NCBI GenBank assembly: GCA_045597895.1
Contig: JAZLLA010000053.1
Span: 24,988 to 88,987 of the forward strand
Length of the DNA stretch: 64,000 nucleotides
DNA from: Candidatus Cryptobacteroides sp.
Lineage (GTDB): Bacteria; Bacteroidota; Bacteroidia; Bacteroidales; UBA932
Direction of reading: 5' to 3'
Of the stretch, positions 33,918 through 51,331 are shown piece by piece. Under the pieces are notes generated by a model that had not been told where the DNA came from, ran no database searches, and was given only the letters and a program-made list of their open reading frames with translations. Position 1 is the stretch's first letter; the number at the start of each line of letters is the position of its first letter. The position numbers and the translations under genes are program-made.

Positions 33918-33950
33918 AGCGTGGTCCCCTACAGGGTCGCGCTTTTTTTT
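33918..33950 (+). terminator. terminator after the nuclease gene
   Basis: Imperfect 10-bp stem (AGCGTGGTCC / GGGTCGCGCT, with G-U pairs) and a 5-nt loop, followed by T8. Confidence 0.5.
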
Positions 33951-35065: not shown

Positions 35066-35300
35066 ACATGACAAACTGAACAGTGTGAAAATAGTGAGTT
35101 TTCCTGATTTTGGTTGACTCGATTACGTCTTATCTCTAGAAGAAGTGGTATTTGAAGGACGTTCAGTATCAGAAAGAGGGGGGATATAAGAATGGGCAGT
35201 GATATAGCTGCCCGTGTATTGTTGTTTCGTCGCGTTTGTTTGCTTGACTTTGTGCAATGGTAATATGTTTGATAGTCACAGAACACTGAAAACACTCATT

Positions 35301-35927
35301 ATGGAGAAGTCACTCCTTCTGGTGTTTATTCTGTTCAGCCTTCCGTTGTCTGCGCAGGAGGTCAAGGATTCTGTATCCGTTAGGGGCCCTTCTTCTCCAC
35401 AGGCAGAGAAGCGTGAGGAGCCTTCTAATAGCCGTGCAGAGTGCCGTTTGGGAACCAATATCCTGTATGATGTGGCCACTGTTGCCAATCTTTCACTGGA
35501 AATCGGTTTCGCCAGACGTGTGGCGCTTAATCTCTCCTCTGCTTTCAGTCCCTGGGACATCAAGCCAGACCTTAAATTCAGGGCCCTCCTTCTTCAGCCG
35601 GAGCTCCGTTGCTATCTTTCGAAGGGTTTCAAGGGGCACTATCTGGGCGCAGAGGGTCATTATGGATGGTACAATATCGCCATCTGCGATATGGACAGGT
35701 ATCAGGACAGGGACGGGAACACACCTCTATGGGGTGCGGGCCTCAGTTATGGATACGTCGTTTCATTCAACAGACATCTGGGTATGGACTTCAGTATCAG
35801 TGCCGGATACGCGAAACTTGTCTATGACTGCTTCTACAACATCGAGAACGGCGCAAAGTTTACCACGGTAACCCGTGAATGGTGGGGCCCCACCAGGATA
35901 GGGATGTCCATTTATTATCAGTTTTAA
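35301..35927 (+). CDS. DUF3575-family outer membrane beta-barrel protein
   Basis: Signal peptide MEKSLLLVFILFSLPLSAQE. The pattern LGTNILYDVATVANLSLEIGF...LLLQPELRCYL...GHYLGAEGHYGWYNI...GAGLSYGYV...WWGPTRIGMSIYYQF matches my memory of DUF3575, the first gene of many Bacteroidales fimbrial operons. Confidence 0.8.
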   Translation: MEKSLLLVFILFSLPLSAQEVKDSVSVRGPSSPQAEKREEPSNSRAECRLGTNILYDVATVANLSLEIGFARRVALNLSSAFSPWDIKPDLKFRALLLQPELRCYLSKGFKGHYLGAEGHYGWYNIAICDMDRYQDRDGNTPLWGAGLSYGYVVSFNRHLGMDFSISAGYAKLVYDCFYNIENGAKFTTVTREWWGPTRIGMSIYYQF

Positions 35928-35930
35928 GCC

Positions 35931-36971
35931 ATGAGGAGAATGACGTCCATACTTATGGCTTTGAGCCTTGCCACATTCTTTATCTGCTCCTGCGAGAAGA
36001 TACACGAGTTCCCTATGGAGGGGAGGGACATTGATCCTACAGAGATTGGAGCCGGTATCGACATCAGGTGCAAGGTCGAGGTTCCGGTACACGATATCAT
36101 CACGCGATCAGTGTTCTCGGACCCTCAGTCGCAGGCATCTGCTTCTGATTACGAGCGCCGTTATGTCGTGAATATATATGCAGCGGAATACACTGACACG
36201 TTGGTGGAGTCGCATACTGTATACCGCGAGGCGGAAGATGTCTCAGACCTTCTCATCGAAACGAAACTTCATGCGAGAAAGTACAGGCTGGTCGTCTGGA
36301 TGGATTATGTACGGAAGGATACTGGGCAGGACCTGTATTATCAGACAGGCGACGGCAAGATGCTGAACGCCATCCATCAGCCTTCTGCGCGCAGTTATCT
36401 TGCATGCAGCGATTTCAAGGACGCGCAGTCGTTCGTTTCGGATATCGATCTGACTTCCTATTCCGGAAAGTGGTTTGAGAGTGTGTCCATAACCGCTCCT
36501 CTTTCCCGTCCGGTAGCGAAAATCACCATCCTTGCAAGTGACTTCGAGGATTATGCTTCTTCCATAGGATACACGGGGCCGCTTTCAGCTCTGGCGGATG
36601 ACATAATCGTCGACGTCAGCTATGACGGGTACTATCCGACAGGCTTCAACGCCTTCACCGGCAAGCTGAATGACTCGGAACCGGGATACGGATTCAGTTC
36701 ATGCCTGACGTATCCTTATTCTTTGGACGGCATTGATTACACCCGTATGGGTTTCGACTATGTGTTCGTCAACAACGACAAGTCTTCCGTGACCCTCACT
36801 GTAAGGATCAAGTCCGGGAGCGGACAGTTCATCAATGAAATCAGTACCATCGTCGTTCCGGTGGAAAGGGGAAAGGAAACGGTGGTGATATATAAGTTCT
36901 TCACAAAGGAAAGTGTCCCTGGAATAGGTATCAATCCTGGATTTGACGGAGAGTTCAACGTATATGTATAG
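35931..36971 (+). CDS. FimB/Mfa2-like fimbrial anchor-type lipoprotein
   Basis: Lipobox FFICSC, 346 aa. Motifs YRLVVWMDYV, DLYYQT, DAQSF and LSRPVAKITILASD parallel the FWAD / DAFF / RPFAQLN motifs of the downstream paralogues and of the Mfa2 family. Confidence 0.55.
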   Translation: MRRMTSILMALSLATFFICSCEKIHEFPMEGRDIDPTEIGAGIDIRCKVEVPVHDIITRSVFSDPQSQASASDYERRYVVNIYAAEYTDTLVESHTVYREAEDVSDLLIETKLHARKYRLVVWMDYVRKDTGQDLYYQTGDGKMLNAIHQPSARSYLACSDFKDAQSFVSDIDLTSYSGKWFESVSITAPLSRPVAKITILASDFEDYASSIGYTGPLSALADDIIVDVSYDGYYPTGFNAFTGKLNDSEPGYGFSSCLTYPYSLDGIDYTRMGFDYVFVNNDKSSVTLTVRIKSGSGQFINEISTIVVPVERGKETVVIYKFFTKESVPGIGINPGFDGEFNVYV

Positions 36972-37701
36972 AAAGTCCTGCATATTGATAGCAATTGCTC
37001 TTGTACTGGTTTCCTGCAGCAAGGATCCGGTCGGGAGCGGGGTGGATACACGGTTCTGCGCTACCATAGAGCCCGAGGTCACCGTGCGTTCCGGTGTAGC
37101 GGAAGATGAGCCTGTCGTCGCTGACCACGCCATTCTTGAAATCTGGATGAACGGTTCCCTGAAGGTCCGTCAGGAGAAGGGAATGCAGCCGGGTGCGAAA
37201 CGGGTTGCATTTGATAATGTAAGGCTTGCCGGTGGACAGGACTATGATGTCTTCGTCTGGGTGGACTGCCAGGGATTCTATAAAACGGATGACTTGCGTA
37301 GCGTGAGCCTGAATGCTGAAACGAATTATGACGGAGGGACCCCTGGATTTGATGCTTTCTTCGCATACACGCAAATACACAGCAGCCAGGGTGGCGGTGT
37401 CTGCGATGTCGTTCTGAAAAGGCCGTTTGCCAGGCTGAACTTCAGTGCCGGTGTATCTTCGCCGGCAACGATCGGTTTTACGGCAGCCACCACGCTCGAC
37501 CTCAAAACCGGCGTGGTGTCAGGCTCCAGGGAATTCCAGTATACCATAGCTCCGACCGATTCCGGGGTGGCGGCATTCGATTATGTGTTTGCCGATGAGA
37601 GTCAGGGGCGGATGGATTATTCGTTTACTTTGGGCGGAGCTCAACCAATCACTGCTTCTATCCCGATAGAAAGGAATAAAGTAACAAATATCATAAAATA
37701 A
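36964..37701 (+). CDS. short pilin-fold lipoprotein (paralogue P3, divergent)
   Basis: Lipobox LVLVSC. Motifs VFVWVD, DAFFAY, LKRPFARLNF, FDYVFAD and ERNKVTNI. 8-nt overlap (ATGTATAG) with the upstream gene. Confidence 0.5.
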   Translation: MYRKSCILIAIALVLVSCSKDPVGSGVDTRFCATIEPEVTVRSGVAEDEPVVADHAILEIWMNGSLKVRQEKGMQPGAKRVAFDNVRLAGGQDYDVFVWVDCQGFYKTDDLRSVSLNAETNYDGGTPGFDAFFAYTQIHSSQGGGVCDVVLKRPFARLNFSAGVSSPATIGFTAATTLDLKTGVVSGSREFQYTIAPTDSGVAAFDYVFADESQGRMDYSFTLGGAQPITASIPIERNKVTNIIK

Positions 37702-37715
37702 GACCTTACCGAATT

Positions 37716-40700
37716 ATGAAAAACGCATTATTACTTCTCGCTTCCGCAGCGTTGCTCCTCGTGGGCTGTGCGAAGGAACCGGTTTCAGAGCAGGGCGGTG
37801 GGCTGACGGCAGTCACCTTTACTGCCGGATTCGAAAATGCAGCCGCTACGAGGGCGATTGCCGATAATGACGGCAACGGCGCAAATGTCACCCGCTGCAT
37901 TATGGAGATTTACTATGGAGATCAGCTCTACAAGCGCCTCGTGCAGCCTGTGTCCGCCCAGAAGGCGACATTCTCGGATGTTCCTGTAGTCGCAGGAAAG
38001 AAGTATCGCATTCTTTTCTGGGCCGACTGCGGCGACGGCCTTGAAGACAAGTACTTCGATGCTGATAACCTCAAGTCTGTCAAGCTCAAAAAGGATGCAT
38101 TCCTGACTGCGCTTAAGAGTAAGAACAATGACAAACTTGACGCATTCTTCTTCAGTGACGACTATACCGTGCCTCAGGGCGGCGGCAGTTACGATGCCAC
38201 TCTCACGCGTCCTTTCGCCCAGCTGAACATCATCACCACCGATGTGGGTGCAGACAACACCGTAACAGGCATCGACCTTCTTCCGGAGAAGGTTTCTGTC
38301 AGCTACACCGGGGCCAAAGAGATCAATGTCGCCACAGGCGAAGTGTCCGGCTCAGAGGCTTACGCATATGAGGCCTCCGTTTACGGCGAGTGGGCGACAG
38401 TAACTCCTACCCACAAGGAACTGACTCTCTCCATGGACTACATCCTCGCACCGGCAGAGAAGTCAATGATAGACGTGACCTTCAAGACAAAGAACGGTGA
38501 TGCGGTTGTGATGAACCACAGCCTGACCAATCTCCCTTGCCAGCGCAACTACCGCACCAACGTCAAGGGACAGCTCCTTACCGTCGGCGGCACCTGGACT
38601 GCAACGGTAACTCCGGACTGGACCGACTCTCGCAATGTCAACCTCAGGGAGGTGGAAGGCATAACCTCTCTCAACGAGGTGCTCGCTGTCGGCGCCAACG
38701 ACATTAAGGTCACTTTGCCTGCTACGTCTGACGGCTCGAAGGTTACCTTCACTTCTGTCAATAACCTTCAGGATATTGTCCTCAGCTTTGCGGGTTCAGG
38801 CCAGACAGTAACATTTACCAATGCTGACGGAGCGGCAGGCCCTAAGTCTCTGACTATCACCGCGCCGGAGGGCACCAGCCTTGTCTTCGAAAAGCCGCAG
38901 CAACACGTTGTCATCAACGGCACAAGCTATGATACCATTCAGGGTGCCTTCTCCGCCAACACCCTCGTCATCAGCGAAGGTGTGACTGTCGGGACCATCA
39001 AAATCACCGCCGGCGGACTTGAGATTCACGGAACTGTCAATACTATCGGCGAAGGCCTCACAAAAGATGTCAAGGTCCGCGAATGCGAAGACCTCAGCAC
39101 AAGCGTTTACAACGCGCTCAAGAATTACATCGACGCCCCTCAATACAAAGCTGTGCAGAACGGCGACAAATGGGATATCGTTGCTGCCGACAAGACCGCT
39201 ATGATAGGTGAGAACGTTTATTACAACATCACCGACGCATTGACAGCAGCCCAAAGTGGGCAGACCATAAAGCTTCTGATAGATCTTTCAGATACAGGTG
39301 TGATGAACCTCCCTGCGGGTGTCACCTTCGATGGCGACGGCCATCAGATTACCGGCGCTTCACCGATATATATCGCTGCTCAAGGCGGCACAGTGAAGAA
39401 CGTAGTCTTCAAGAATCTTCACAATGACAGCAACAAGCAGTCAGCTGCCTATGCCCAATCCCTTGCAGGCAAGGCCGAAATCTCCGGTTGTACTTTCGAT
39501 ATTTCCGACTGGGATGCCATCCAGATTACCACAAACTCTTCAAATGCCGAAATCGTCATCAAGGACAATGAGTTCAAGGCTGTTGATAAGACCGACAAGC
39601 AGAACCGCTTCATCCATATTCAGACAGACAACTATTCCAATGTTGATCTGAAGGCCGAAATTACAGGCAACAAGTTCTCAGGCATATACAACCTTCAGAA
39701 TGCTGCAATCGAGCTATATTGCCCGACCGATTTCAACAAGGTCAACATCTCAGGCAACTACCTTGACGGCAACAAGATTTCCGTATGTATAGCCAACAAG
39801 GAAAACGGTGCCTGGACAAATCATATTGAATCAGCCAAGAATTGGCTTGATGCAAACGGCCAGCCCGTAGCAATCAATGCTGCCATCAGAGCTGACGAAG
39901 CTGCAGAAAACATACTTCTCTGCACCACCCTTGAAGTCGCTCTCGAGGAATCAGCAAATTGGGCCGGCAGCCTCTGCATTCTGAACGAAACAGCTCTGCG
40001 CGAACTCTCAACCCTCGTGAATGGCGGAACCACTTTCGCGGGAAAGAAAGTTTCCCTTGTCAATGACATTGACCTCAAGAGCGTTCCTTTTACCCCGATT
40101 GGAAATGTTTCTTCTTATCCATCGGCTTCTTTTGCAGGAATTTTCGATGGAATGAACCACACTATCTCTAACCTTAAATGTACGGATAATACTCCAAATC
40201 ACGCTTGTGCCGCTTTGTTCGGAAGCATTTCTGGTAATAGCACAAGCGACTCGGGAACTGTTAAAAACTTGACGCTCAAGAATGTTGAAATAACAAGCAG
40301 CCATTATGCAGGTGGAATTGTCGCATACAGTTCTGCAAGTCCGCTTGTCATAGAGAATTGCAACATCAATGGAGGTACAATCACTTCAAGTCCTGAGTTG
40401 ATTGGAAGTACATTTGACAATGGTGATAAGGTTGGTGGCATTTTGGGTTATGCTGGTCAAGGAGGCAGTATTACAAACTGCGGAGTTCAGAACCTGACCA
40501 TTAAGGCATATCGTGACCTTGGAGGAATCGTGGGATATAACAAAAACAATATCAGCAATTGTTCAGTTGCAAACTGTGTTATTATCCAAGATAATACCAA
40601 TGCATATAAAAATGATGACATCACTACCTTTGGCGAAATAGTCGGCAATCAGGAAGTTGGAGAGTTGTCCAACAATACATACGACAACGTTATTATCAAA

Positions 40701-41528
40701 CGTATTCTCGCCGACGGTCTCATTTATACCAAAAACGCGAAGCTCTATGAGGTTTCCAAGGTGCCGGGTCTGCTTTATTTCCGTTATATGGTTACTGGCG
40801 GCAACACCTTTGCCGGCCAGACGGTGAAACTGTTGGAAGACCTCAACCTTGCATCCATTGACAATTATATTGGAACCAAGGGTAAATTCAGCGGCACCTT
40901 CGATGGTAACGGAAAAACAATCTCCAATCTAAAAATTTCAGGTGAGGCCAACAGCACTGCATTTTTCGGTAGTGTGTGGGAAGCAAACATCAAGGATCTC
41001 ACAATTTCAGGCGCCAATGTAACAAGCACCGGTGCAGACTACACAGGCATCCTTGCCGGCAATGGTTATGCTCATTTCGACAATTGTACTGTCAGCGGCA
41101 CCGTTTCAGGCGTAGAGCAGGTGGGTGCCATCATAGGATATCTCTCTTGCGGCCACATTAAGAATTGCAAGGTTGATGCTACAGTAAGTGGAACTTCACG
41201 TGTCGGTGTTCTTGCCGCTAAAGCAAATGTGGACAGTTCTTATGAGATTGAAGGTAACATCATAAAAGGCTCTGCAACTTCAGGGGATATCTATGCTGGA
41301 GGTGTTGTAGGCCAGATTATGTGCGGAACCGGAAAAGTATGGACCATCAAGAACAACTGCATTGATGCCACAGTCAGCAACGGTGGTTCTTTGATTGGCA
41401 ATGTCCGCAGCGGACAATGGGATGCCTTCCTAGCCGGTTATCAGGAGAACGTCACAGGTAACACCTGGACAGCATCAGGTAACTGCAAGATTACCGACGG
41501 TACAAATTCAGTAACAATCACTAAATAA
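37716..41528 (+). CDS. giant surface lipoprotein P4: type V pilin-fold base, conserved linker module, beta-helix-like region and two GLUG-type repeat modules
   Basis: Cys18 lipobox LLLVGC and Arg46 in ATRAIAD. Motifs FWAD, DAFF, LTRPFAQLNIITTD, MDYILA and QRNYRTNVKG in the first ~300 aa. Then ITAPEGTSLVFE...LEIHGTVN, the cap-like AMIGENVYYNITDALTAAQSGQTIKL, and repeated F.G.FDG.(N/G).TISNL plus GGIVAY/GGILGY/GGIVGY/GAIIGY strings. Confidence 0.6.
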   Translation: MKNALLLLASAALLLVGCAKEPVSEQGGGLTAVTFTAGFENAAATRAIADNDGNGANVTRCIMEIYYGDQLYKRLVQPVSAQKATFSDVPVVAGKKYRILFWADCGDGLEDKYFDADNLKSVKLKKDAFLTALKSKNNDKLDAFFFSDDYTVPQGGGSYDATLTRPFAQLNIITTDVGADNTVTGIDLLPEKVSVSYTGAKEINVATGEVSGSEAYAYEASVYGEWATVTPTHKELTLSMDYILAPAEKSMIDVTFKTKNGDAVVMNHSLTNLPCQRNYRTNVKGQLLTVGGTWTATVTPDWTDSRNVNLREVEGITSLNEVLAVGANDIKVTLPATSDGSKVTFTSVNNLQDIVLSFAGSGQTVTFTNADGAAGPKSLTITAPEGTSLVFEKPQQHVVINGTSYDTIQGAFSANTLVISEGVTVGTIKITAGGLEIHGTVNTIGEGLTKDVKVRECEDLSTSVYNALKNYIDAPQYKAVQNGDKWDIVAADKTAMIGENVYYNITDALTAAQSGQTIKLLIDLSDTGVMNLPAGVTFDGDGHQITGASPIYIAAQGGTVKNVVFKNLHNDSNKQSAAYAQSLAGKAEISGCTFDISDWDAIQITTNSSNAEIVIKDNEFKAVDKTDKQNRFIHIQTDNYSNVDLKAEITGNKFSGIYNLQNAAIELYCPTDFNKVNISGNYLDGNKISVCIANKENGAWTNHIESAKNWLDANGQPVAINAAIRADEAAENILLCTTLEVALEESANWAGSLCILNETALRELSTLVNGGTTFAGKKVSLVNDIDLKSVPFTPIGNVSSYPSASFAGIFDGMNHTISNLKCTDNTPNHACAALFGSISGNSTSDSGTVKNLTLKNVEITSSHYAGGIVAYSSASPLVIENCNINGGTITSSPELIGSTFDNGDKVGGILGYAGQGGSITNCGVQNLTIKAYRDLGGIVGYNKNNISNCSVANCVIIQDNTNAYKNDDITTFGEIVGNQEVGELSNNTYDNVIIKRILADGLIYTKNAKLYEVSKVPGLLYFRYMVTGGNTFAGQTVKLLEDLNLASIDNYIGTKGKFSGTFDGNGKTISNLKISGEANSTAFFGSVWEANIKDLTISGANVTSTGADYTGILAGNGYAHFDNCTVSGTVSGVEQVGAIIGYLSCGHIKNCKVDATVSGTSRVGVLAAKANVDSSYEIEGNIIKGSATSGDIYAGGVVGQIMCGTGKVWTIKNNCIDATVSNGGSLIGNVRSGQWDAFLAGYQENVTGNTWTASGNCKITDGTNSVTITK

Positions 41529-41537
41529 AATAAGACT

Positions 41538-44500
41538 ATGAAAAAAGTTTTTTTTCTTCTCGCTTCTGCAGCGCTTCTCATCGTGGGCTGCAACAAGGAG
41601 CAAATGTCCAATGGCACGGACGGCGGAATGATCACCGCCACCTTTACCGCCAATCTTGAAAGCGGAGTCGCCACCAGGGCTGTCGCTGACGGCGATGGTG
41701 CTGCTGCCAATGTCAACCGCTGTATTATGGAAATCTACTACGGTGATGCCCTCTATGCAAGGCAGATTGCCAAGGTTACGGACAAGCAGGCCACCTTTAA
41801 TGCTCAGGTAGTATCCAACAGAGGCTACACTGTTGCATTCTGGGCGGACCGCGTCGACGATGCAACTTCCGATACTGGTCTTGCAGCTGACAAGTATTAC
41901 AATACAGCATCTCTTAAGGAGATTACCTTCAAGAGCTCCTATGTCGGCAACGACGATGCACGTGATGCGTTCTTCGTATGCGAACCTTTCACGGTTAAGC
42001 AGACAGGAGGTGCATTCTCTGCAACGCTCAAGCGTCCGTTCGCCCAGATGAACGTCATCACCACCGATTGGGACAAGGTTACTACTGTAGAAGCCCTCAT
42101 ACCTGAGAAAGTGCAGGTCATCCTCAAGAACCCTATGGTCAAGTTCAACGCCGTTACCGGCGAGGCGTCTGCTGACGCGAACACTCCTTCCTTGACCTAT
42201 ACTGCAGCTGTTTACACTGCACCTGTTCCTGAAGAGCCCGTATCTACAACCGAAAAGACCCTCTCAATGGATTATCTCTTCGCTTCTGCAGATAAAGCCG
42301 TCATCGACATCGACTGGAAGGCCCTCCACGGCAGCGATACCGATGTAGAGCACACTTTCGCAGCAGTTCCTTACCAGCGCAACTACCGCACCAACATCAA
42401 GGGAGCCCTCCTTACAACCCAGGGCCAGTGGACAGTAGAGATTGATCCGCTTTGGGATTCACTCAATGACGGAAGCAAGGATATCAATGTTTACTACACA
42501 ACGGTAAATGAGGCTTCTGAAGTCAAAGGTGTTATCGAGGACAAGAAAGAAGATACAACCAAGGACGGACAGCCGATTTCCGTGACCATCAACAATGAAG
42601 TCGGAGGCCCGACCAACGACGATATCATCATTCCTGACAATACTCCTAAGGAAAAAACTCCTGAAATTATCCTAGACTTCAAGAAATTGTCGGCCGGTGC
42701 TCAGATTGTGATTCGTGACGAAGAGCATCCGAGAGATGCGGATGATGCTGCAAATGGTGCCAAAGAGTATGAAGGCGAAGTTGTAGTAATCGTACCTGAA
42801 GGAACCACTGCAACTCAGGTGAAGATTCTCACCAGCAAGTCAACCGTCACCGTACGTGGTGAGTATGGCACCGTTATCGCTTCTTGCGCACCTCAGACCA
42901 TTATCGTTGAGAAGGAAACCGTTATCGAAACTCTCGAAGTGATGAAGGGTAATGTGGAAGTTTACGGAAGGGTTAATTCTATTGTCAATAAAACTGCTGA
43001 GACAGAAGATGCTAAAGAATTAGTCTATGTTTACCTCTTCCAGGGTTCTACCTGGACGAAAGTTGAGACAGAAAAGAATGAGAAACTCGTTCCTCTTTAC
43101 CCTGTAGCCAAAGTTGGAGATAATATCTATTTCTCTGTCAAAGAGGCTCTTGCAGCTGTAAAGGCTGGTGATGTACTCACTCTGGTTTCAGATGCCACAC
43201 TTGATAAGAAACTTGTCATCAACGGTGGCAAGGACTTCACCCTTGACCTTGGTGGAAAGACCCTCACCGGTCGTGTAAATGTTGACGGCGCCAAATTGGT
43301 TGTGAAGAACGGTACAATCAATGCCGGTTCCTTCAATCAGGCATTGAACGTATACGGCTCAAAGGACCCTCAGTATAAGGATGGTATTTATTCATATGTG
43401 AAAGTTGAAAGCGATGTCATCCTTGACGGTGCAGTTTGCGCTCTTGGCATAATGAGCGTCAATGGAGATACATATTATCCTCTTGCATATGGTGTAAAGG
43501 TTGATTTCTATGGAAAGGCTTTGAACGTTCCTGCACAGGTAAGTGGGAACATTGGATTTGACAATTACAAGGCTAATATAGGCAATATTGACATTTCTGC
43601 CAATCTTCCTGCCGGAATCAGTGCTCCGAGCAAGGCGATGAGCCTCTACGGTCCCGTTGTAAACATTTATGGAGAAATGAGAAGCACTTATGCTCAAGAA
43701 GAGTGCCAGGCATTCATTCTAAGCGGCATGGCCCGCGTTAACGTTTATGATGGTGCATACATTGAGGGGGCTGAGGGCTTTGCAATGAAGTCCGGCAACT
43801 TGCACGTATATGGTGGAACCATCAAATCCAATGGCTCAAAAATAGATCCTGTCCAGGCTGTGAACAGCGGAGCCGAGGCATCAGGTGCTGCTATTTCAAT
43901 CACCAGCTACTATACTCACGATTTGTTTGAAGATAGGGCAAAAATACAGGTAAACATTGAAGGTGGTGAAATCCTGGCAGATAATAATGCCGCCCTTCTT
44001 GTGACACATTCTTATGCGGAATCCAAGCCTGTTGCCCTCAAGCAGGGTGTTGATCTTGCTATCAACGGAGGAAAGTTCACCAGCGGTTCAGGCATCCCTG
44101 TTATTTTTATCGACAATGCTGCAGAAGGCGACGCATTTGCAATGCCTGCCAAATTCATCTCCGGTGGCCAGTACAACAAGGCTCCTGAAGCCGGCTACAT
44201 TGCAGATGGCAAGAAAGCCGAACAGGATACTCATGGAAATTGGGAGATTGTGATGGATGAGCTCGCAACTGTCAATGGTATTAAATATGCTACTGTTCAA
44301 GAAGCCATTGAGGCAGCCAATACAGGTGATGTCATCAATGTCTATGGAACAACAAATTTCACCAAGTCTGATGACGGTTTCTGCTATGTCGATGCTACCA
44401 ACAAAACAGGACGACTCGTGCTTGTGGAACTTGTCAATGAAGGAAGCCCTACAACAAACGCTTCGCTGAAGGTAAATACTGCTCCTGCTGTAAATTCAAT

Positions 44501-45200
44501 GACATTCCAGACATTGTGGCTGGGCAGTGCAAGTCGTCTTGACGCTCCCGGCTCGTATCTGAAGAGTGGTGATGTGCTGGTGTTGCCAGCAAAGACTATG
44601 TACCTCAATAATGGCCCTATATATGATATGTATGGCGATATAACATTATTGGGAAAGAAAGGGAAAACTGTAATTAAACCGTGGGGAAGCCCTTCTTCGA
44701 AAGCACGTTTCTTCCGTCTGTATAATCGTTATAAAGCGAATATTGAAAATAAGATTATTTATCATTTCAATTTCAGAAATGTAACTTTTGACGGGGAACT
44801 GAAAAATAATGGTGAGAATCTGTTTATCGTAACTTGCTACAACATACAGATTAATATGGATGGTTGTACTGTTAAGAATTTCCCTGGAAGTGTCTTCAGC
44901 ATTTGGGCAAATGATGCTCTTAGTGATTCTTCATTCCCTACTAGAGAAGATAATGCTGGTGTTGAAGTAAATATCACCAATTCCACATTGACAGGAAACG
45001 GACGGCTGGTTAGATATGATTGCATACCAACTCAGTCAGATGTTAGCGCAAGTCTTAATAAGTATGGATTCATCCACGTGAATTATGATGCAAACTCTGT
45101 AGTGAATTGTACGGAAATGTACAATTTCAACGAAGTCACCGCCAAGGGTCAAGGCAACTGTCTCTTGAATGGTGTTGATGTTAGACCTGCAGATAACTAA
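41538..45200 (+). CDS. giant surface lipoprotein P5: pilin-fold base, conserved linker module and two beta-helix-like head modules
   Basis: Cys18 LLIVGC and Arg47 in ATRAVAD. Motifs FWAD, DAFF, LKRPFAQMNVITTD, MDYLFA and QRNYRTNIKG. Then the cap-like AKVGDNIYFSVKEALAAVKAGDVLTL and ATVNGIKYATVQEAIEAANTGDVINV. Module end GYIADGKKAEQDTHGNWEIV. Confidence 0.6.
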   Translation: MKKVFFLLASAALLIVGCNKEQMSNGTDGGMITATFTANLESGVATRAVADGDGAAANVNRCIMEIYYGDALYARQIAKVTDKQATFNAQVVSNRGYTVAFWADRVDDATSDTGLAADKYYNTASLKEITFKSSYVGNDDARDAFFVCEPFTVKQTGGAFSATLKRPFAQMNVITTDWDKVTTVEALIPEKVQVILKNPMVKFNAVTGEASADANTPSLTYTAAVYTAPVPEEPVSTTEKTLSMDYLFASADKAVIDIDWKALHGSDTDVEHTFAAVPYQRNYRTNIKGALLTTQGQWTVEIDPLWDSLNDGSKDINVYYTTVNEASEVKGVIEDKKEDTTKDGQPISVTINNEVGGPTNDDIIIPDNTPKEKTPEIILDFKKLSAGAQIVIRDEEHPRDADDAANGAKEYEGEVVVIVPEGTTATQVKILTSKSTVTVRGEYGTVIASCAPQTIIVEKETVIETLEVMKGNVEVYGRVNSIVNKTAETEDAKELVYVYLFQGSTWTKVETEKNEKLVPLYPVAKVGDNIYFSVKEALAAVKAGDVLTLVSDATLDKKLVINGGKDFTLDLGGKTLTGRVNVDGAKLVVKNGTINAGSFNQALNVYGSKDPQYKDGIYSYVKVESDVILDGAVCALGIMSVNGDTYYPLAYGVKVDFYGKALNVPAQVSGNIGFDNYKANIGNIDISANLPAGISAPSKAMSLYGPVVNIYGEMRSTYAQEECQAFILSGMARVNVYDGAYIEGAEGFAMKSGNLHVYGGTIKSNGSKIDPVQAVNSGAEASGAAISITSYYTHDLFEDRAKIQVNIEGGEILADNNAALLVTHSYAESKPVALKQGVDLAINGGKFTSGSGIPVIFIDNAAEGDAFAMPAKFISGGQYNKAPEAGYIADGKKAEQDTHGNWEIVMDELATVNGIKYATVQEAIEAANTGDVINVYGTTNFTKSDDGFCYVDATNKTGRLVLVELVNEGSPTTNASLKVNTAPAVNSMTFQTLWLGSASRLDAPGSYLKSGDVLVLPAKTMYLNNGPIYDMYGDITLLGKKGKTVIKPWGSPSSKARFFRLYNRYKANIENKIIYHFNFRNVTFDGELKNNGENLFIVTCYNIQINMDGCTVKNFPGSVFSIWANDALSDSSFPTREDNAGVEVNITNSTLTGNGRLVRYDCIPTQSDVSASLNKYGFIHVNYDANSVVNCTEMYNFNEVTAKGQGNCLLNGVDVRPADN

Positions 45201-45210
45201 CATAACTTTT

Positions 45211-45240
45211 TCCCGGGCGGGCCTGACCGCCCGACCGGGA
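45211..45240. repeat. GC-rich hairpin after P5 (member of a 3-copy intergenic hairpin family)
   Basis: TCCCGGGCGG GCCTGA CCGCCCG(AC)CGGGA: a 7-bp core stem plus an outer TCC/GGA. Related to 45715-45736 and 49382-49411. Confidence 0.6.
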
Positions 45241-45353
45241 TCCAAAGGAAACATAACAAATCAAATCAACAAAATAGCATGACCGGGCGTATCCATAACA
45301 TAACGAGAGCCACCTGCAGGCAAGCAGGCGGCTCCCGAACGGATGGGAAGAAG

Positions 45354-45698
45354 ATGGTTCAATTACCGTCTCCGGTAATGGGCTTTGACGTAAACCTTGC
45401 GGCCATTAACCACTCGGAAGTGGCCTCTGACACGGACCGGTTTGCGGCGAGACTCATCCTCACAGACTATCGTAAGGCGCTCTCTCGTGTTCTTAATTGT
45501 AAGGGCAATTTTCATAATATTGAAATTTTTAAGTCTGAGAACAAGGAGCGGCTTGAAATAGAGTACTCCATCCGTTTAGACAAAAACAGGACACCTATTC
45601 AAAATGAATCAAATGTCCTGTTGTACTTAGAGCACGAGAGCTTGCCTCCTCTCGACTTAAAATCGCCTTACGGGTGTAAAGGTATGAACAAATATTAA
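45354..45698 (+). CDS. orphan hypothetical ORF inside the 500-bp P5-P6 spacer (coding status doubtful)
   Basis: Open frame (139 aa from 45279, 114 aa from 45354) with no signal peptide and no motif I recognise. Its codon usage is A/T-ending, unlike its neighbours. Confidence 0.2.
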   Translation: MVQLPSPVMGFDVNLAAINHSEVASDTDRFAARLILTDYRKALSRVLNCKGNFHNIEIFKSENKERLEIEYSIRLDKNRTPIQNESNVLLYLEHESLPPLDLKSPYGCKGMNKY

Positions 45699-45714
45699 TA
45701 ATTCAAAATTTCCC

Positions 45715-45736
45715 CTTCCGGGCTTGACCGCCCGGG
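45715..45736. repeat. GC-rich hairpin (partial copy) before P6
   Basis: CCGGGC TTGACC GCCCGG followed by GAGCAAATAGAAA. The 16-nt core CGGGCtTGACCGCCCG repeats 45218-45233 exactly 500 bp upstream, with 1 mismatch. Confidence 0.6.
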
Positions 45737-45780
45737 AGCAAATAGAAAGAAAACAGATTATAGAAAACCAAAAAACGAAT

Positions 45781-48700
45781 ATGAAAAAAACTTTGTTACT
45801 TCTTGCTTCAGCAGCGCTTCTCATTGTGGGCTGCAACAAGGAACAGGTCGCAGAGAATGTGGCCGGTGAAGGTTTACAGACCGTAAGTTTCACCGTAGGT
45901 GTAGAATCAATTGCAACCAGAGCCGTTGATGACAATGACGGTAAAGCCGCTAACATCAACCAATGGGTGATACAGGTTATGGATTCGGATGGTGGAGTAT
46001 ATCATCATAAGGCAGAAAGCGGCGAATTGGGAAATACAACTCACACCTTCAATGTCCCTCTCGTCAAAGGCCAGACCTATAACATTCTTTTCTGGGCTGA
46101 TACCAAGGACAGTTATGTAGTTACAGACCTTCGCCAGGTAAAACGTTCTGAGAAAACATACCTCAAGGCAAACGCCGACAGCCTCGACGCTTTCAGTGCA
46201 GTGGTCAAGGATTTCTCCACCACTGTCGCCTCTAAGAAGGACATCACCCTCAAGCGCCCCTTCGCTCAGCTCAACGTCGTGTTCACAGACCTGAAGAAGC
46301 TGTATGAGACGATGAATAATTCTGATGAGTATGCAAAGTTCAAACCCGTTGACTTTGTTGCAAAGGCAAAGGTTCCTACAGAATTCAACGTGTTTACCCA
46401 GGAGGCCGGTGCCCCTGCAGAGACCGCTCTTGTAATGACAGCCGCTAAGGATTATCTTGGCAACTATACTTCCCATCGTGCCAAGGAGACTCTCTATATG
46501 GACTACATCTTTGCCTCCAAGGACACCAAGGACGTAGTTGACATCGACTTCTCCTTCGTGTCAAAGGGTGTTTCCATCGCACACAACTTCACATCCATAC
46601 CTTTCCAGCGCAACTTCCGCACCAACATCCTCGGTGAGTTCATGAGTGCAGGCGCCCAGTGGAATGTTAAGGTTGATCCTATCTGGTCAACTCCTGAATA
46701 TGATGTTCCGTTCCTTGCGGCTTCAACAATTGCTGAAGCTCAGAGCTATATTGCACCTGAAGCTGAAGGAACACAGACGTCAAAGGTCGTGGATCTTTCC
46801 AAAGCCACCATTACTGCGGAAGACATTGATGACGAAGATAATACAATCAAGTTTGAGTTGACGACCCATTCTCCTGCCGATATGGTCAACTTCACCCTTC
46901 CTGCAATCCCACAAGATGTTATCGATGCAGGTTGCACAGGTTGGAAGATTACTTACGAAGAAGGATATCCTACTAAGAATGTAAACGTAACCGCTCCTGA
47001 AGGAACTAATGTGACCATTGAAGCACCGGATTCGCATGTAACTCTGAATGGTACTGAGTATGAGCAGGTTACTGCCTCTACCGGTGACAAAACTCTTGTC
47101 GTTCCTGCAGGCGTAACTATTGATAAACTTATCGTCAAGAAGGGTGCCGTAGAGATCCACGGAACTGTCAACCACCTTACCGTTACCCCTGAAGAAGGTA
47201 AAGAAGTTGTCTTCCGCGCTTGCGAAGGCCTGAGCGCAGATGTATTTGCAGCCATCAAGGGAGAAGGTCACGACTATATCGATTATCCTATGTACACCTA
47301 CGAGCTTGTCGGTGAGAAATACAACATCTACAAACTCCCTGTAGTCGCTATGATCGGTGAGGCTGAGTATCCTTCAATCGCCGCAGCTCTTGCAGCTGTT
47401 CCTGCAGACAACACTGAGCTTGTTACCATCAAAGTGATGAGCGACGTGGCTATCAATTCAAGCTCTCTTGCAATCAACAAGAATAACGTCGTCCTCGATG
47501 GTCAGGGTCATACAATCGCTATCGATGAGACTGATGCCAGCCTTGATCCGTATCTTGTAGATGGAACTAGTAAGAGATATGGCAGTTTCCAGATGATTAA
47601 AGTATCAGGTAATGATGTTATTCTCAAGAATATGACTCTAGACAGCAGGAATTACCGTGGAGCTTCTCTTGCCACTACCTGTGGAGGCAAGAATGTTTCC
47701 TATGAGAACATTATCTACAAGGGCCTTGGTTCTGGGCACTATTATGGTTCTGCTGGCGGTGATGGTACTTTGAAATTCAAGAATTGTACATTCGAAACTC
47801 ACGGATATGCTATCCACACTGCAGAATGTCAATCTGTACTCGAAGTTTCAGACTGCGAAATCCATGGTTGGGTTTCCTATGGTGACAAAACAAAGAGTGC
47901 AACATTCACAAATACACACTTCTATTCAACTACGGATCAATACAATGGCGTTATTGCTACAATTCGTCCTTATTGCGCTACTACCTTTACCAATTGCACT
48001 TTCTCAAAAGAGTATTTGTCAAAATACAAATATGATGGCTTGACTGTAAGAAGCAATGTTGTTGTGTCTCTTAAAGGCTGTTCCGTTGAAGATGGCGAAC
48101 TTTGTGATATCGCCAACTTCACTGGCGATGATCCTTGGATTGACGGTGGCGTAATGGCTATCGATGCTACCGGCAACGCTACCAACGGCTTCACCGCAGG
48201 TACATTCGTAGCAAAGCAGGCAGAGGACATCAAGGTTTCATCCTTGTCAGAGTTGAAGACTGTTGAGGGAAAGCAGTATGTATATAAGGTTTCTGTTATT
48301 CCTGTTGCAAAGATAGGTGAAACTGAGTATGAAACCCTGCAGGCCGCTTTTGATGCCGTTCCTGACGGAACAAAAACCACTATCACTCTTATTGCCGATG
48401 CTAAGGCCGCAACTCTTGGAGACAAGAACAACATCGGAGCAAAGACTGTTATTCTCAACCTCAACGGCCACAGTATCACAGGCTATATGAGAGGCATCAC
48501 CGCTTTGACAGGCTCCACTTCTCTCGATGGTGCAACCCTGATCAACTATGCCAACCTCACCATCAATGGAGAGGGTACAATCGGTGATCTTGAAGGAGAT
48601 TATCATCACAATGCTCTTGTAAACATGTCTGATGGCACTAACCTAACAATTAATGGTGGAACATTTGTGGCAAAGAGCTGCTGCGTATACCACTATTCTG

Positions 48701-49374
48701 CAAGCAGTCAGGCCAATACCGCTTCTATTAATATCAATGGAGGCAACTTCAAGGCATATGAAAATGCAGCGACCAATAAATACGTGTTCGGTATCGGTGG
48801 AAAATCAGGCCAGACCCTAACATTCGACTATAAGAATGCATCAGCAGAAGGTGCAAAAGGTATCTACTGCAGCCTTGCCGGTACGGCAATCAATGTTCAC
48901 TCAGGTTCAATCACAGCTGATATCAATGCCATCAATCTGAGTATGGGCAAGAATGTTACCATAAATATCGATGGCGGCAAATTGGAGACTTTGGATTCAG
49001 AAAGTCATGCCAATAATTATATGTCGAATGGGTCATATGCGGGATCATCACTTCCTATTTTTGCCAGCGCATTCGGTAGCGAGAATGTCGTTTGTAACAT
49101 AAGCGGTGGAGAATTTATCTATCCTTATTACTCTTGGCAGAGTAGTGGAACCAAACCTGCAACCTGGGAGCGTGTAATCAACGCTGGTGTGGGCATTACC
49201 AGCAACGTGGCCAATGCCAACATTACTGCATCCCTCACCGGCGGTACCTATTCAACCAACCAGATGCTTTCCGACATCACAAATGATCAGTCTGCGGCAT
49301 CAGGAATTGTAGCAGAAGGCTACACCTGCAAGAATAATGGCGACGGTACCTGGACAGTGGTAGCAGCTAACTAA
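45781..49374 (+). CDS. giant surface lipoprotein P6: pilin-fold base, conserved linker module and two beta-helix-like head modules
   Basis: Cys18 LLIVGC and Arg47 in ATRAVDD. Motifs FWAD, DAFS, LKRPFAQLNVVFTD, MDYIFA and QRNFRTNILG. Then VTAPEGTNVTIE...VEIHGTVN, and the cap-like AMIGEAEYPSIAAALAAV and AKIGETEYETLQAAFDAV. Terminal AEGYTCKNNGDGTWTVVAAN. Confidence 0.6.
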   Translation: MKKTLLLLASAALLIVGCNKEQVAENVAGEGLQTVSFTVGVESIATRAVDDNDGKAANINQWVIQVMDSDGGVYHHKAESGELGNTTHTFNVPLVKGQTYNILFWADTKDSYVVTDLRQVKRSEKTYLKANADSLDAFSAVVKDFSTTVASKKDITLKRPFAQLNVVFTDLKKLYETMNNSDEYAKFKPVDFVAKAKVPTEFNVFTQEAGAPAETALVMTAAKDYLGNYTSHRAKETLYMDYIFASKDTKDVVDIDFSFVSKGVSIAHNFTSIPFQRNFRTNILGEFMSAGAQWNVKVDPIWSTPEYDVPFLAASTIAEAQSYIAPEAEGTQTSKVVDLSKATITAEDIDDEDNTIKFELTTHSPADMVNFTLPAIPQDVIDAGCTGWKITYEEGYPTKNVNVTAPEGTNVTIEAPDSHVTLNGTEYEQVTASTGDKTLVVPAGVTIDKLIVKKGAVEIHGTVNHLTVTPEEGKEVVFRACEGLSADVFAAIKGEGHDYIDYPMYTYELVGEKYNIYKLPVVAMIGEAEYPSIAAALAAVPADNTELVTIKVMSDVAINSSSLAINKNNVVLDGQGHTIAIDETDASLDPYLVDGTSKRYGSFQMIKVSGNDVILKNMTLDSRNYRGASLATTCGGKNVSYENIIYKGLGSGHYYGSAGGDGTLKFKNCTFETHGYAIHTAECQSVLEVSDCEIHGWVSYGDKTKSATFTNTHFYSTTDQYNGVIATIRPYCATTFTNCTFSKEYLSKYKYDGLTVRSNVVVSLKGCSVEDGELCDIANFTGDDPWIDGGVMAIDATGNATNGFTAGTFVAKQAEDIKVSSLSELKTVEGKQYVYKVSVIPVAKIGETEYETLQAAFDAVPDGTKTTITLIADAKAATLGDKNNIGAKTVILNLNGHSITGYMRGITALTGSTSLDGATLINYANLTINGEGTIGDLEGDYHHNALVNMSDGTNLTINGGTFVAKSCCVYHYSASSQANTASININGGNFKAYENAATNKYVFGIGGKSGQTLTFDYKNASAEGAKGIYCSLAGTAINVHSGSITADINAINLSMGKNVTINIDGGKLETLDSESHANNYMSNGSYAGSSLPIFASAFGSENVVCNISGGEFIYPYYSWQSSGTKPATWERVINAGVGITSNVANANITASLTGGTYSTNQMLSDITNDQSAASGIVAEGYTCKNNGDGTWTVVAAN

Positions 49375-49381
49375 TCTTTTT

Positions 49382-49411
49382 TCCCGGGCGGGCGATCAAG
49401 CCCGCCCGGGA
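49382..49411. repeat. GC-rich perfect hairpin after P6
   Basis: TCCCGGGCGGGC GATCAA GCCCGCCCGGGA (12-bp stem) followed by GCAAATTGAAA, the same tail as the copy at 45737. Confidence 0.8.
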
Positions 49412-49437: not shown

Positions 49438-50349
49438 ATGAAAAAATCATTATTTGCGATTGCTTCTATGGCACTCCTGCTTGCGGGGTGTGCCAAGGAA
49501 CAGATATCAAGCCCGGCAGGTGATGGGCAGACCGTCAAGGTGAGCGTCATGGCGCAGTTGCAGAACGGCGGCCAGACCAGGGCCACCTGGGACCATGATG
49601 GTGAAGGTGCGCTTGTGGACCACTGGATTATGGAGGTCTATGATGCTCAGGGATTGCTTTTCGATCGTCAGGAAAAAAGCGGGCAGTCCGGCCTTACAAA
49701 CACATTCGAGCTGGCTCTCATAAAGAACCAGACCTATAAGTTCGCCTTCTGGGCGGACACGAAGGATATGTACGACACAGCCGACCTTCGTGCCGTCAAG
49801 ACGGTTTCCCGCAAGGCTGGCCGCGACAGCAGGGACGCATTCTTTGCAGCGAAGGAGTATACTTCCACAAAGAGCGAGACTCTCACGGCGGAACTTTACC
49901 GCCCGTTCGCACAGATCAATGTCGTGACTCTCGATCTCGACAAGATTTATAAGCAGATGGAAGCGGCAGAGACGACTGCGAATTATGACAAGTTTATTCC
50001 TACCGAGATCAAACTCACAGGTGAGACATACAACCAGTTCAATGTTCTGACCGGAGAGGTCTCGGATGTCCAGTCGTATGTGCTCAACCTTGCAAGCTGC
50101 TATGCCGATTATGCCGCACACGCTGAGGTAAGCACCATTTTCATGGATTATGTATTCGCCAAGACTGAAAAAGAGCTCAAGGATCTTTCCTTCTCTTTCG
50201 TCTCAAATAAAGTACCTGTCTCATACAGCTTTGCGAATGTCCCTGTCCAGCGCAACTACCGTACGAACATCACCGGCAACCTGCTCAGTTATGACGCTGA
50301 GTGGTCAGTGGAAATCATTCCTGCCTGGCTGGGAACCCACGAGTACTAA
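49438..50349 (+). CDS. short pilin-fold lipoprotein P7 (headless paralogue)
   Basis: Cys18 LLLAGC and Arg48 in QTRATWD. Motifs FWAD, DAFF, LYRPFAQINVVTLD, MDYVFA and QRNYRTNITG. It ends right after WSVEIIPAWLG. Confidence 0.6.
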   Translation: MKKSLFAIASMALLLAGCAKEQISSPAGDGQTVKVSVMAQLQNGGQTRATWDHDGEGALVDHWIMEVYDAQGLLFDRQEKSGQSGLTNTFELALIKNQTYKFAFWADTKDMYDTADLRAVKTVSRKAGRDSRDAFFAAKEYTSTKSETLTAELYRPFAQINVVTLDLDKIYKQMEAAETTANYDKFIPTEIKLTGETYNQFNVLTGEVSDVQSYVLNLASCYADYAAHAEVSTIFMDYVFAKTEKELKDLSFSFVSNKVPVSYSFANVPVQRNYRTNITGNLLSYDAEWSVEIIPAWLGTHEY

Positions 50350-50383: not shown

Positions 50384-51331
50384 ATGAAAAACAAGATATT
50401 GATCATTGCTTCAGCTGCACTTCTGTTTACCGGGTGCGCTAAAGAGAACATACCTGGCAGTGAAGGCACAGTGAAAGTATGTGTGACCGCTCAGGTTCAG
50501 AATGCTACAGACCCTTCGACAAGGGCATCGTGGGACAATGACGGCAAGGGCTCCAAGGTTGATCACTGGGTTGTCGAGGTAAGGGACATCCTCGATATGG
50601 AGACCGTCTATTACCACGCAGAGAAGACCGGCGACGAGGGCGTTCTCGAGCAGACCTTCGACCTTTATCTCATCCCTGAACACACTTATGACATCGCTTT
50701 CTGGGCTGACAGGGCCGAATGCTACAATACTGAAGACCTTACAGCCGTAGAGTGCAAGGATGTGACAAAGATTGGCAACTCAGACGATTTCGACGGATTC
50801 TTCAGGTGTGTCCGCCATGTTGTGGACGGAGACGATAAGCTCTCCGCACGCCTGTATCGCTCTTTCGCCCAGGTCAATGTCGTCACTACCGATCTCCCGA
50901 AACTGAAGTCTTCAACCACTCCTGAGGCTTATGCCCTCTATGAGCCTGTGGACTATTCCTTCAAGCTGACCGTTCCTACTGTACTCAATGCCTTTACAGG
51001 TGAGACTTCCGGTGAGGAGGAGATCACTATCACTCCGGAGGATGATGTCAATCATTGCTACGGTGACTATGACACTGCCTCGGAGATTACGACCCTCTAT
51101 ATGGTTTATGTCCTCACGAGCAAGCCGACGAGCATTTGGGACAAGGATGTCCGTGATATTGATTTTGCATTCAATACCGGTGATGTGGAACTTGCTTATG
51201 ACTTCAAGAATATACCTCTGAAGAGAAACTTCCGTACCAATATCATCGGATCCTTCATGACCAACACTCTCAAGTGGACTGTTGAAGTCGTTCCAGACTG
51301 GCTCGGTGAGATACCTTCCTTATATTTTTGA
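50384..51331 (+). CDS. short pilin-fold lipoprotein P8 (headless paralogue)
   Basis: Cys18 LLFTGC and Arg47 in STRASWD. Motifs FWAD, DGFF, LYRSFAQVNVVTTD and KRNFRTNIIG. It ends after WTVEVVPDWLG. Confidence 0.6.
   Translation: MKNKILIIASAALLFTGCAKENIPGSEGTVKVCVTAQVQNATDPSTRASWDNDGKGSKVDHWVVEVRDILDMETVYYHAEKTGDEGVLEQTFDLYLIPEHTYDIAFWADRAECYNTEDLTAVECKDVTKIGNSDDFDGFFRCVRHVVDGDDKLSARLYRSFAQVNVVTTDLPKLKSSTTPEAYALYEPVDYSFKLTVPTVLNAFTGETSGEEEITITPEDDVNHCYGDYDTASEITTLYMVYVLTSKPTSIWDKDVRDIDFAFNTGDVELAYDFKNIPLKRNFRTNIIGSFMTNTLKWTVEVVPDWLGEIPSLYF

Follow-up and report, generated by a model that had tools for sequence, protein, structure and literature searches.

In Bacteroidia of the gut and mouth, the main adhesive fibres are type V pili, whose tips determine the attachment targets. 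Two routes of tip variation have been known so far. Allelic variation was found in Porphyromonas gingivalis, in which the tip gene mfa5 is the most variable, with five genotypes independent of mfa1 and two alleles in some strains (PMC13390158). Mutagenesis by diversity-generating retroelements (DGRs) was found in Bacteroides, where BfrT, BthT and BunT were described as DGR-diversified type V pilus tip adhesins (bioRxiv 10.1101/2024.11.15.621889). A third route is suggested at a locus of Candidatus Cryptobacteroides sp., in which strains and species have reassorted heads, spacers, bases and entire genes, with junctions that recur at a few places. The locus lies in a 64-kb window of contig JAZLLA010000053.1 (the whole stretch of DNA analysed, 64,000 nucleotides (nt)) and contains three genes for giant lipoproteins, P4, P5 and P6. 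Comparison with related genomes showed that these genes evolve as mosaics, with DNA from other strains and species replacing single modules, whole heads or whole mature genes.

P4, P5 and P6 are probably paralogous adhesins of a type V pilus-like operon, diversified by modular recombination. Each giant begins with an LVGC lipoprotein signal peptide, an N-terminal anchor strand and a conserved Arg/Lys near residue 46, continues with a two-lobed pilin-fold base of about 300 amino acids (aa) ending in QRN(Y/F)RTN..G..(L/M)....W and a spacer module of about 200 aa, and finishes with two or three head modules, which would be of the right-handed beta-helix or GLUG type. The base would plug the giant into the pilus, or onto its tip, by protease-mediated strand exchange, while the heads would bind ligands, probably glycans.

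Exchange of heads, spacers and bases between related genomes

The comparators were metagenome-assembled genomes (MAGs), metagenome assemblies or Logan contigs, from samples of NCBI, ENA and Logan. One of them, L001 (GCA_045598165.1), belongs to the same species, with flanks 97-100% identical. It is collinear with the window at 97% over 29002-41746 and again at 95-99% from 49434, DNA similarity being absent over 41746-49434. Divergence in P5 starts at nt 41678, just past the Arg46 codon, with the signal peptide and anchor strand kept. In L001 the places of P5 and P6 are taken by proteins of 1242 and 1170 aa, which match P5 and P6 N-terminally only (44% and 35%) and carry GLUG and beta-helix modules in another order. 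As judged from this alignment, everything from P5 codon 47 to the P6 end, i.e. mature P5 and P6, is replaced. A second divergent block was seen within P4, where 38579-40094 has 175 mismatches against 2 in the 1.3 kb to the left and 2 in the 600 nt to the right. Only 6 mismatches were counted over 37000-38600, and the dense divergence from 38579 begins 18 nt past the QRNYRTN coding stretch.

A related species, L080, of about 88% DNA identity to the window, aligns with 35151-40103 and 40707-42436, and then again from 45213. Unalignable are 40103-40707, the first GLUG module of P4 (GLUG-1), and 42436-45213, which is all of P5 past the pilin domain; alignment resumes at the palindromic element behind the P5 stop. 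The P5 pilin base of L080 has 86.5% DNA identity up to 42436, and the encoded counterpart has 92-98% aa identity over most of aa 1-300 and less than 40% beyond: the P5 base is kept under a different head. In a third locus, L083, P6 is 98-100% identical except in a 1.5-kb module at 46764-48260 (spacer and beta-helix 1), where identity falls to 50-87%. The more distant locus L002 has five giants, of which the bases of g1, g2 and g3 match the bases of P4, P5 and P6 in order (69, 71 and 73%); the heads are off by one gene, g2 having the P4 middle (73%) and g3 the P5 middle (79%).

Module-wise identity was likewise discordant in single proteins of the family. The P5 stretch aa 350-900 is 80-90% identical in P0123-P0128, whose bases are 24-40% identical and which lack the P5 tail. 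Head 2 of P6 recurs at 85% in P0051, on a base of about 30% identity (41% in the base alignment), and at 78% in P0074, with 55% in the base alignment (aa 20-691); beta-helix 1 of P6 recurs in P0096 (84-96%) and P0010 (72-92%), both without head 2. The middle and tail of P4 are found at 60-88% in P0004, with base and GLUG-1 at 37-56%, and P0003 is about 85% identical to P4 except in GLUG-1 (40-52%). P0058 matches P5 at 92-98% over aa 51-300 and at 86% over aa 1-50. Based on these identities, one head occurs on unrelated bases, and one base with unrelated heads, throughout the family.

The original prediction, made from the sequence of the window, had proposed that heads are exchanged as cassettes on a resident base. 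The exchange itself is borne out by the comparisons with L080, L083, L001 and L002: strains differ by swapped heads rather than by base and head inherited together, and heads compared separately with the database have relatives on unrelated bases (P0051, P0123-P0128). The base is less resident than was thought, in that spacers, bases and whole mature genes are replaced as well. The exchangeable base is the pilin domain of about 300 aa and not a unit of 500 aa, the second module being itself exchangeable. JGI metagenomes scanned with the P4 base gave no relatives, hence no further conspecific strains there.

The junctions recur at a few places: past the Arg codon, past the QRNYRTN stretch, at borders of head modules (for example about 40095-40103), and where the palindromic elements 45207-45252 and 49378-49423 lie. 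The DNA encoding QRNYRTN is identical between P4 and P5 at 21/21 nt, and over 76 nt of signal-peptide DNA the identity is 70-86%. Copies of the GC-rich palindromic element, TTTTTCCCGGGCGGGC...GCCCGCCCGGGAGCAAAT, stand behind the P5 stop, ahead of the P6 start and behind the P6 stop, and in L001 at about 16290-16344; homology resumes at such elements in L080 (45213) and in L001 (about 49434). Since a T-run lies ahead of the hairpin, the element is not a canonical intrinsic terminator. Between two of its copies there is an insert of 450 nt (45253-45707), with G+C up to 0.53, which holds an open reading frame (ORF) of 139 aa (45279-45698) that found no match in Pfam; its first ~100 nt are 89% conserved in L080.

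Short conserved stretches would be the sites of exchange, through homologous or homeologous recombination, with selection keeping only in-frame chimeras broken at domain boundaries; the contributions of recombination in conserved DNA and of selection on chimeras are inseparable here. A stronger proposal is that the locus is a purpose-built combinatorial adhesin platform, whose conserved DNA joints are selected handles that capture heads from a shared Bacteroidales, even cross-phylum, pool. The joints would then be the DNA for the signal peptide and anchor strand, the DNA for QRNYRTN, the cap strings of the beta-helices and the palindromic element between genes. This stronger proposal is possible but doubtful.

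Pilin-fold bases and beta-helix or GLUG heads

Pfam DUF6562 (PF20200) spans aa ~50-310 in each giant, and its gathering threshold of 25 bits is passed by all of P2-P8, the giants and their shorter neighbours (P2 237 bits, P5 100, P4 76, P6 69, P7 61, P8 42, P3 33). P4, P5 and P6 possess a lipoprotein signal peptide with a lipidated Cys, as expected of type V pilins, reading MKK..LLLASAALL(L/I)VGC, in which the lipobox C18 is nearly invariant among 59 aligned sequences; T46, A48, D51, D53 and G54 are conserved in the same alignment. A(T)TRA(V/I) is found at residue 46 in all three, behind a predicted strand at aa 32-41; its basic residue would be the point where a maturation protease cuts. The AlphaFold2 (AF2) model of P6 has a mean predicted local distance difference test score (pLDDT) of 76, is confident over aa 60-870, and places a low-confidence linker (aa 292-308) behind the pilin domain, followed by about 900 more residues. 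Foldseek matched the N-terminal part of this model to 3gf8, 3pay, 4qdg, 3r4r, 5nf4 (Mfa3), 5nfi (Mfa2) and 5dhm (Mfa4), with E-values of 7e-8 to 5e-4, probability 1.00 and target TM-scores of 0.41-0.54. By this model, the P6 base consists of two transthyretin-like beta-sandwich domains of the type V pilin superfamily.

A conserved N-terminal region of about 500 aa, the same base in all three giants, had been proposed. The three proteins do align over their first 530-690 aa (blastp: P4/P5 aa 1-547/1-578, 34% identity; P4/P6 aa 1-687/20-769, 31%; P5/P6 aa 1-531/20-536, 33%), but at 31-34% identity the bases are, judging by these alignments, old paralogs and not one common base. QRNYRTN is encoded at 38541-38561 in P4 and 42375-42395 in P5, and QRNFRTN at 46606-46626 in P6. 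The signal peptide MKKxLLLLASAALL(L/I)VGC(A/N)KE (37716-37780, 41538-41602, 45781-45845) ranks with the most conserved stretches of the entire family, genus to genus, with K2, K3, L14, G17, C18, K20 and E21 nearly invariant (alignments A1, A3 and A4), which is unusual for signal peptides. A role in surface export, homogenisation through recombination, or the two together may account for its conservation.

The motifs quoted by the original prediction for the second module and its borders were recovered: ITAPEGT, VIVPEGT and VTAPEGT, followed by LEIHGTVN, VEVYGRVN and VEIHGTVN, the cap strings AMIGENVY, AKVGDNIY, ATVNGIKY, AMIGEAEY and AKIGETEY, and the end strings of P5 (aa 885) and P6 (aa 1179). 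R(E/A)CE(D/G)LS was found as RECEDLS and RACEGLS but is absent in P5. Of the two GLUG modules seen in P4, the first (aa 761-1000) scores 39.1 bits with Glug (PF07581), a motif that M26 IgA1 proteases also have in their N-terminal region, and the second (aa 1001-1270) 20.4 bits, against a cut-off of 20.5; among family members, GLUG stands right behind the pilin domain, behind the spacer, or C-terminally. Two beta-helix-like modules had been claimed for each of P5 and P6, and the claim holds for P6 head 1 and the P5 head region. In P6, aa 521-835 match Pectate_lyase_5 (PF20585; 30.9 bits, E 3e-7, cut-off 24.3) and Beta_helix (PF13229; 29.4 bits, E 7e-7, cut-off 25.9), and Foldseek matched head 1 to pectin methylesterases (1gq8, 2ntb, 8tne), consistent with a right-handed parallel beta-helix in the model. 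For the AF2 model of P5 aa 296-1220, right-handed beta-helix proteins were the sole Foldseek matches. The evidence is weaker for these P5 heads, with Foldseek only, and for P4 aa 546-760 (Beta_helix, E 0.019), and the models of the P5 and P6 terminal modules are of low confidence, so that their beta-helix nature is not established. No Pfam match was found for the second module or the P5 terminal module.

The P5 terminal module has relatives in only 11 representative clusters among 1.84 billion proteins, and these, the P5 ortholog excepted, are not DUF6562 proteins. The best, at 49-50% identity, are surface proteins of other architectures, and one of them adjoins ecfT-truA and a DUF4368 gene, which we take to be a Firmicutes-like context. 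From these few sequences, with their taxonomy inferred, there is a hint that the pool of heads extends beyond Bacteroidales. P0228 and P0232, distantly related to the P5 tail (44253-45197), terminate with a spacer rich in Pro and Glu, then a hydrophobic stretch and RRK, a C-terminal membrane-anchor style unlike that of Bacteroidales lipoproteins; from this anchor style, surface proteins of very different architecture seem to share the module in circulation.

A tip-adhesin function was proposed because of the fold, the lipobox, the conserved Arg behind the anchor strand and the operon context, together with the published rule that tip pilins of type V pili need no free C-terminal donor strand (PMC13655056) and the precedents of head-bearing, hypervariable type V tips. 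The giants could instead be free-standing surface lipoproteins with polysaccharide lyase or esterase beta-helices, on which the pilin-like domain is only a stalk. The Foldseek matches include pectin methylesterases, PL6 alginate lyases and GH55, and glycan-related genes (melibiase, carboxylesterase) are neighbours; however, the Pfam Pectinesterase match stays below the cut-off (22.9 bits against 27) and covers the first 100 profile positions only, and the best Pfam assignment is the adhesive Pectate_lyase_5 family. Since DUF3575, five further DUF6562 proteins and the conserved Arg behind the anchor strand fit pilus assembly, the enzyme explanation is unlikely; it concerns function only and is compatible with modular exchange.

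Switching, assembly and the composition step

Programmed switching within the cell, a phase or antigenic variation in shufflon or pilE/pilS style, is very unlikely; heads would then pass among the three genes through the adjacent tyrosine recombinase, or through gene conversion with silent copies as donors. A perfect 17-nt inverted repeat between recombinase and operon, the palindromic elements that flank P6 and register as inverted repeat I1, and the L002 heads displaced by one register would all suit it. Yet every giant is a complete ORF in one orientation with its own signal peptide, direct repeats within the genes do not exceed 76 nt and lie in coding motifs, and the replaced segments are without donor in the locus but match other genomes at 65-90%. 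Searches by tblastn with the heads found no further or silent head copies in the 64-kb window, and shufflon-type sites were not found, the sole inverted repeats being the palindromic intergenic elements and the 17-nt pair upstream of the operon. For a DGR, Pfam detected no reverse transcriptase domain among the locus proteins and no template/variable repeat pair was found, the longest direct repeat in 33800-51700 being the 76-nt signal-peptide stretch. Silent cassettes, a DGR and a shufflon were rejected on these grounds and because the genes share one strand.

It is more improbable still that the mosaics are artefacts of metagenome assembly, i.e. chimeric contigs of co-occurring strains. All comparators are MAG or Logan contigs and several switches adjoin near-identical stretches, such as 40095-40721 in L001. 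But the junctions with unalignable DNA share about 20-25 nt (L080, 42436), too short for k-mer assemblers (k141), the same module borders recur in independent NCBI, ENA and Logan samples, and long reading frames are intact in all chimeras.

The bases and heads also differ in G+C content at third codon positions (GC3). Maximum-likelihood change-points were located in P4 at codon 700 (nt 39816; GC3 0.63 before, 0.44 after), in P5 at codon 364 (nt 42630; 0.57 and 0.40) and in P6 at codon 294 (nt 46663; 0.56 and 0.42), with housekeeping genes of the window at 0.70-0.80. The P4 and P5 change-points beat 500/500 permutations, and that of P6 was exceeded by none but equal to the largest. A composition break within each giant had been predicted from G+C counts by hand on 60-nt lines. 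The break exists in every gene, not at about 500 aa but at the pilin-domain end (aa ~300-360) in P5 and P6, before the second module, and before the GLUG modules in P4. The drop is real in 300-nt windows, in which the 5' parts lie at about 0.51-0.57 and the 3' parts at about 0.42-0.47 (lowest values 0.34-0.39; only a slight fall of total G+C in P6), but had been exaggerated by the hand counts. By segment, GC3 is about 0.61 in P4 38601-39995, about 0.35-0.40 in P4 GLUG module 1, 0.44 in P5 42438-44252 and 0.37 in the P5 tail. The GC3 expected from the amino acids under housekeeping codon usage is 0.72-0.76 in every segment, against 0.37-0.44 observed in the heads; the drop is therefore synonymous, and an artefact of amino-acid composition is ruled out. 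The sliding-window and codon-usage check thus returned a significant shift that amino-acid content does not explain.

The step recurs in most of the family. Of 85 giants, encoded at 77 loci of many Bacteroidales, 76 have a higher GC3 in the base than in the head (mean difference 0.069; Wilcoxon p 3e-11), the mean deficit below host GC3 is 0.013 for bases and 0.076 for heads, and head GC3 follows host GC3 (r = 0.81). The closest relatives of the window's heads (L081, L082 and L085) are AT-rich too, in hosts at GC3 0.66-0.72. Hence the heads do have lower GC3 than the bases, as the idea of AT-rich grafts implied, but a single low-GC donor is unsupported. Frequently exchanged accessory DNA tends to be AT-richer than core DNA, and the composition step fits this rule, with the core at 0.74, the pilin bases near 0.6 and the heads near 0.42; the base-to-head step is unusually large in Cryptobacteroides loci. 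The step at synonymous sites would mark the border between a slowly turning-over base and rapidly exchanged heads, which would behave as an AT-richer accessory gene pool and not as a graft from one low-GC donor. That there was no exchange at all, with vertical inheritance and a step due to protein constraints or codon preferences of beta-helix domains, is the least probable explanation of all: the excess of 76 of 85 members in hosts of all G+C levels would suit such a systematic effect, but the amino-acid-expected GC3 is flat, P4 aa 300-700, with the same module types as P5 and P6, stays at 0.61, and mosaics are seen directly in L001, L080, L083 and L002.

Several points weigh against modular recombination of tip adhesins as the explanation. 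L080 and L083 come from one sample, SRR19135263, and are possibly one genome, and with comparators that are all metagenome assemblies or MAGs, linkage across near-identical stretches could be chimeric. Breakpoints at domain borders are expected from selection alone, which leaves the role of the conserved stretches as recombination handles unproven. The tip placement is deduced, and the pilus, its cleavage and its binding are predicted from sequence and models. Furthermore, a W.V.(V/I).P.W segment, with which the short pilins P7 and P8 end, is retained in the giants, so that these could conceivably donate a strand and sit within the stalk.

The operon-like locus and its relation to known systems

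The features of the locus are collected in the table. By Pfam, the operon-like block runs in the order tyrosine recombinase, DUF3575, P2, P3, the three giants, P7 and P8, all on one strand, and is flanked by a BACON endonuclease gene and an M3 peptidase gene. The DUF3575 gene occupies the same position in L001, L002 and L080. P2 is a candidate stalk subunit and P3 a candidate anchor or accessory subunit. In blastp, P3 shares 27% identity with the P4 and P7 bases, P7 shares 41% with the P6 base, and P8 shares 39% with the P6 base and 41% with P7.

Features of the locus (coordinates in the window)
Feature	Position	Strand	Evidence
Tyrosine recombinase (integrase), locus head	33921..34949	+	Pfam Phage_int_SAM_5, Phage_integrase
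DUF3575 protein, operon gene 1	35214..35927	+	Pfam PF12099, E 2e-36
P2, short DUF6562 pilin-family protein	35931..36971	+	Pfam PF20200, E 4e-70
P3, short DUF6562-related lipoprotein	36943..37701	+	Pfam PF20200, E 5e-8
P4, giant lipoprotein, 1270 aa	37716-41528	+	ORF
P4 base: lipoprotein signal peptide, anchor strand, conserved Arg, pilin-fold domain	37716..38600	+	Pfam DUF6562 aa 52-310
P4 second module (~aa 296-545) and first beta-helix-like module (~aa 546-760)	38601..39995	+	motifs; Pfam Beta_helix E 0.019
P4 GLUG module 1	39996..40715	+	Pfam Glug E 7e-10
P4 GLUG module 2	40716..41528	+	Pfam Glug E 6e-4
P5, giant lipoprotein, 1220 aa	41538-45200	+	ORF
P5 base (pilin domain)	41538..42437	+	Pfam DUF6562
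P5 second module (to ~43097) and beta-helix head	42438..44252	+	AF2 and Foldseek
P5 terminal head module	44253..45200	+	most AT-rich part, GC3 0.37
P6, giant lipoprotein, 1197 aa	45781-49374	+	ORF, start corrected
P6 base (pilin domain)	45781..46680	+	AF2 model, Foldseek to type V pilins
P6 second module and beta-helix head 1, pectate-lyase/pectin-methylesterase-like	46681..48285	+	Pfam, Foldseek
P6 head 2	48286..49374	+	strand-rich, low-confidence model (pLDDT <60)
P7, short pilin-only paralog without head	49438..50349	+	Pfam DUF6562
P8, short pilin-only paralog without head	50384..51331	+	Pfam DUF6562
GC-rich palindromic element	45207-45252, 45708-45753, 49378-49423	.	repeat family D4, pairs I1, I13

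The three giant ORFs are present as originally predicted, except that the P6 start was moved. The ORF opens at TTG 45724, while ATG 45781 yields the lipoprotein signal MKKTLLLLASAALLIVGC and a product 100% identical to a database protein; judging from this, ATG 45781 is the real start. Exact P5 and P6 were recorded at 100% in the contig collection, on an NCBI contig of 101,633 nt, and exact P4 was without a record there; the P4 gene may have a different call, or none, in the source record.

Integrase GC3 is 0.42, against 0.70-0.80 in housekeeping genes, and the gene is itself mosaic relative to the conspecific L001 (34402-34701 at 85%, flanks at about 99%). Other ORFs of low GC3 (0.47-0.55) were found at 15953-17125, 24935-26500 and 26970-27902, so the pilus locus is not the sole compositionally atypical stretch of the window. 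The arms of the perfect 17-nt inverted repeat, TCTATGAAAGAGACGAA, lie at 34914-34930 and 35049-35065, 118 nt apart, straddling the integrase stop codon upstream of the DUF3575 gene. The segment inside contains the TAnnTTTG-like strings TACTTTTG and TATATTTG facing the operon and has the same orientation in L001; it is a candidate invertible promoter switch that might be served by the adjacent tyrosine recombinase.

The family is widespread, with hundreds of giants in Cryptobacteroides, Muribaculaceae, Alistipes, Paludibacteraceae, Prevotella and others. Should glycans of host or diet, or other microbes, be what the heads bind, then much of the difference between strains in colonising the gut would stem from their reassortment, and the junction rules would show engineers where heads can be swapped.

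Type V accessory and tip pilins (P. gingivalis Mfa3, Mfa4, Mfa5 and FimC-E; Bacteroides BovFim1C-type) share with the giants a lipoprotein precursor, an anchor strand followed by a conserved Arg, the double beta-sandwich fold (Foldseek to Mfa2, Mfa3, Mfa4 and Bacteroides structural-genomics pilins) and an operon with other pilin paralogs. The giants differ in length (1200-1270 aa), in the 900 aa of beta-helix or GLUG modules fused behind the pilin domain, in the tandem arrangement of three such genes, and in a base that belongs to Pfam DUF6562; the von Willebrand domain of Mfa5 is absent from them. In the literature searched, neither DUF6562 nor shuffling of beta-helix pilins was mentioned. 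In BfrT, BthT and BunT, as in the giants, a third domain connects the pilin-type N-terminal domain to a head for ligand binding; in both, the head is the target of diversification, and there are links of the loci with mobility genes and horizontal transfer. However, BfrT, BthT and BunT change by adenine-directed mutagenesis and not by replacement of whole modules, their heads are C-type lectins and not beta-helix or GLUG, and the present locus is without reverse transcriptase or template/variable repeat pair.

Phage tail fibres and tailspikes have a conserved N-terminal attachment domain and horizontally swapped beta-helix receptor-binding heads. The giants resemble them in the combination of an adaptor with exchangeable right-handed beta-helix modules, in mosaic identity and in breakpoints at domain borders, and the weak Foldseek matches of the P5 heads include the P22, CBA120 and K1 tailspikes; they differ in their cellular operon, pilin-fold bases and lipoprotein export, phage genes being absent nearby. 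Polymorphic toxins (CdiA-CT, Rhs) have a conserved body and a variable C-terminal tip after a motif (VENN, PxxxxDPxGL). Compared with them, the giants have neither toxin/immunity pairs nor orphan tip cassettes, and carry large adhesin-type modules with several junctions per gene. Common to both are the short invariant motif, here QRNYRTN, directly before the divergence of sequence and composition, and tips that pass from strain to strain and have a higher AT content than the body.

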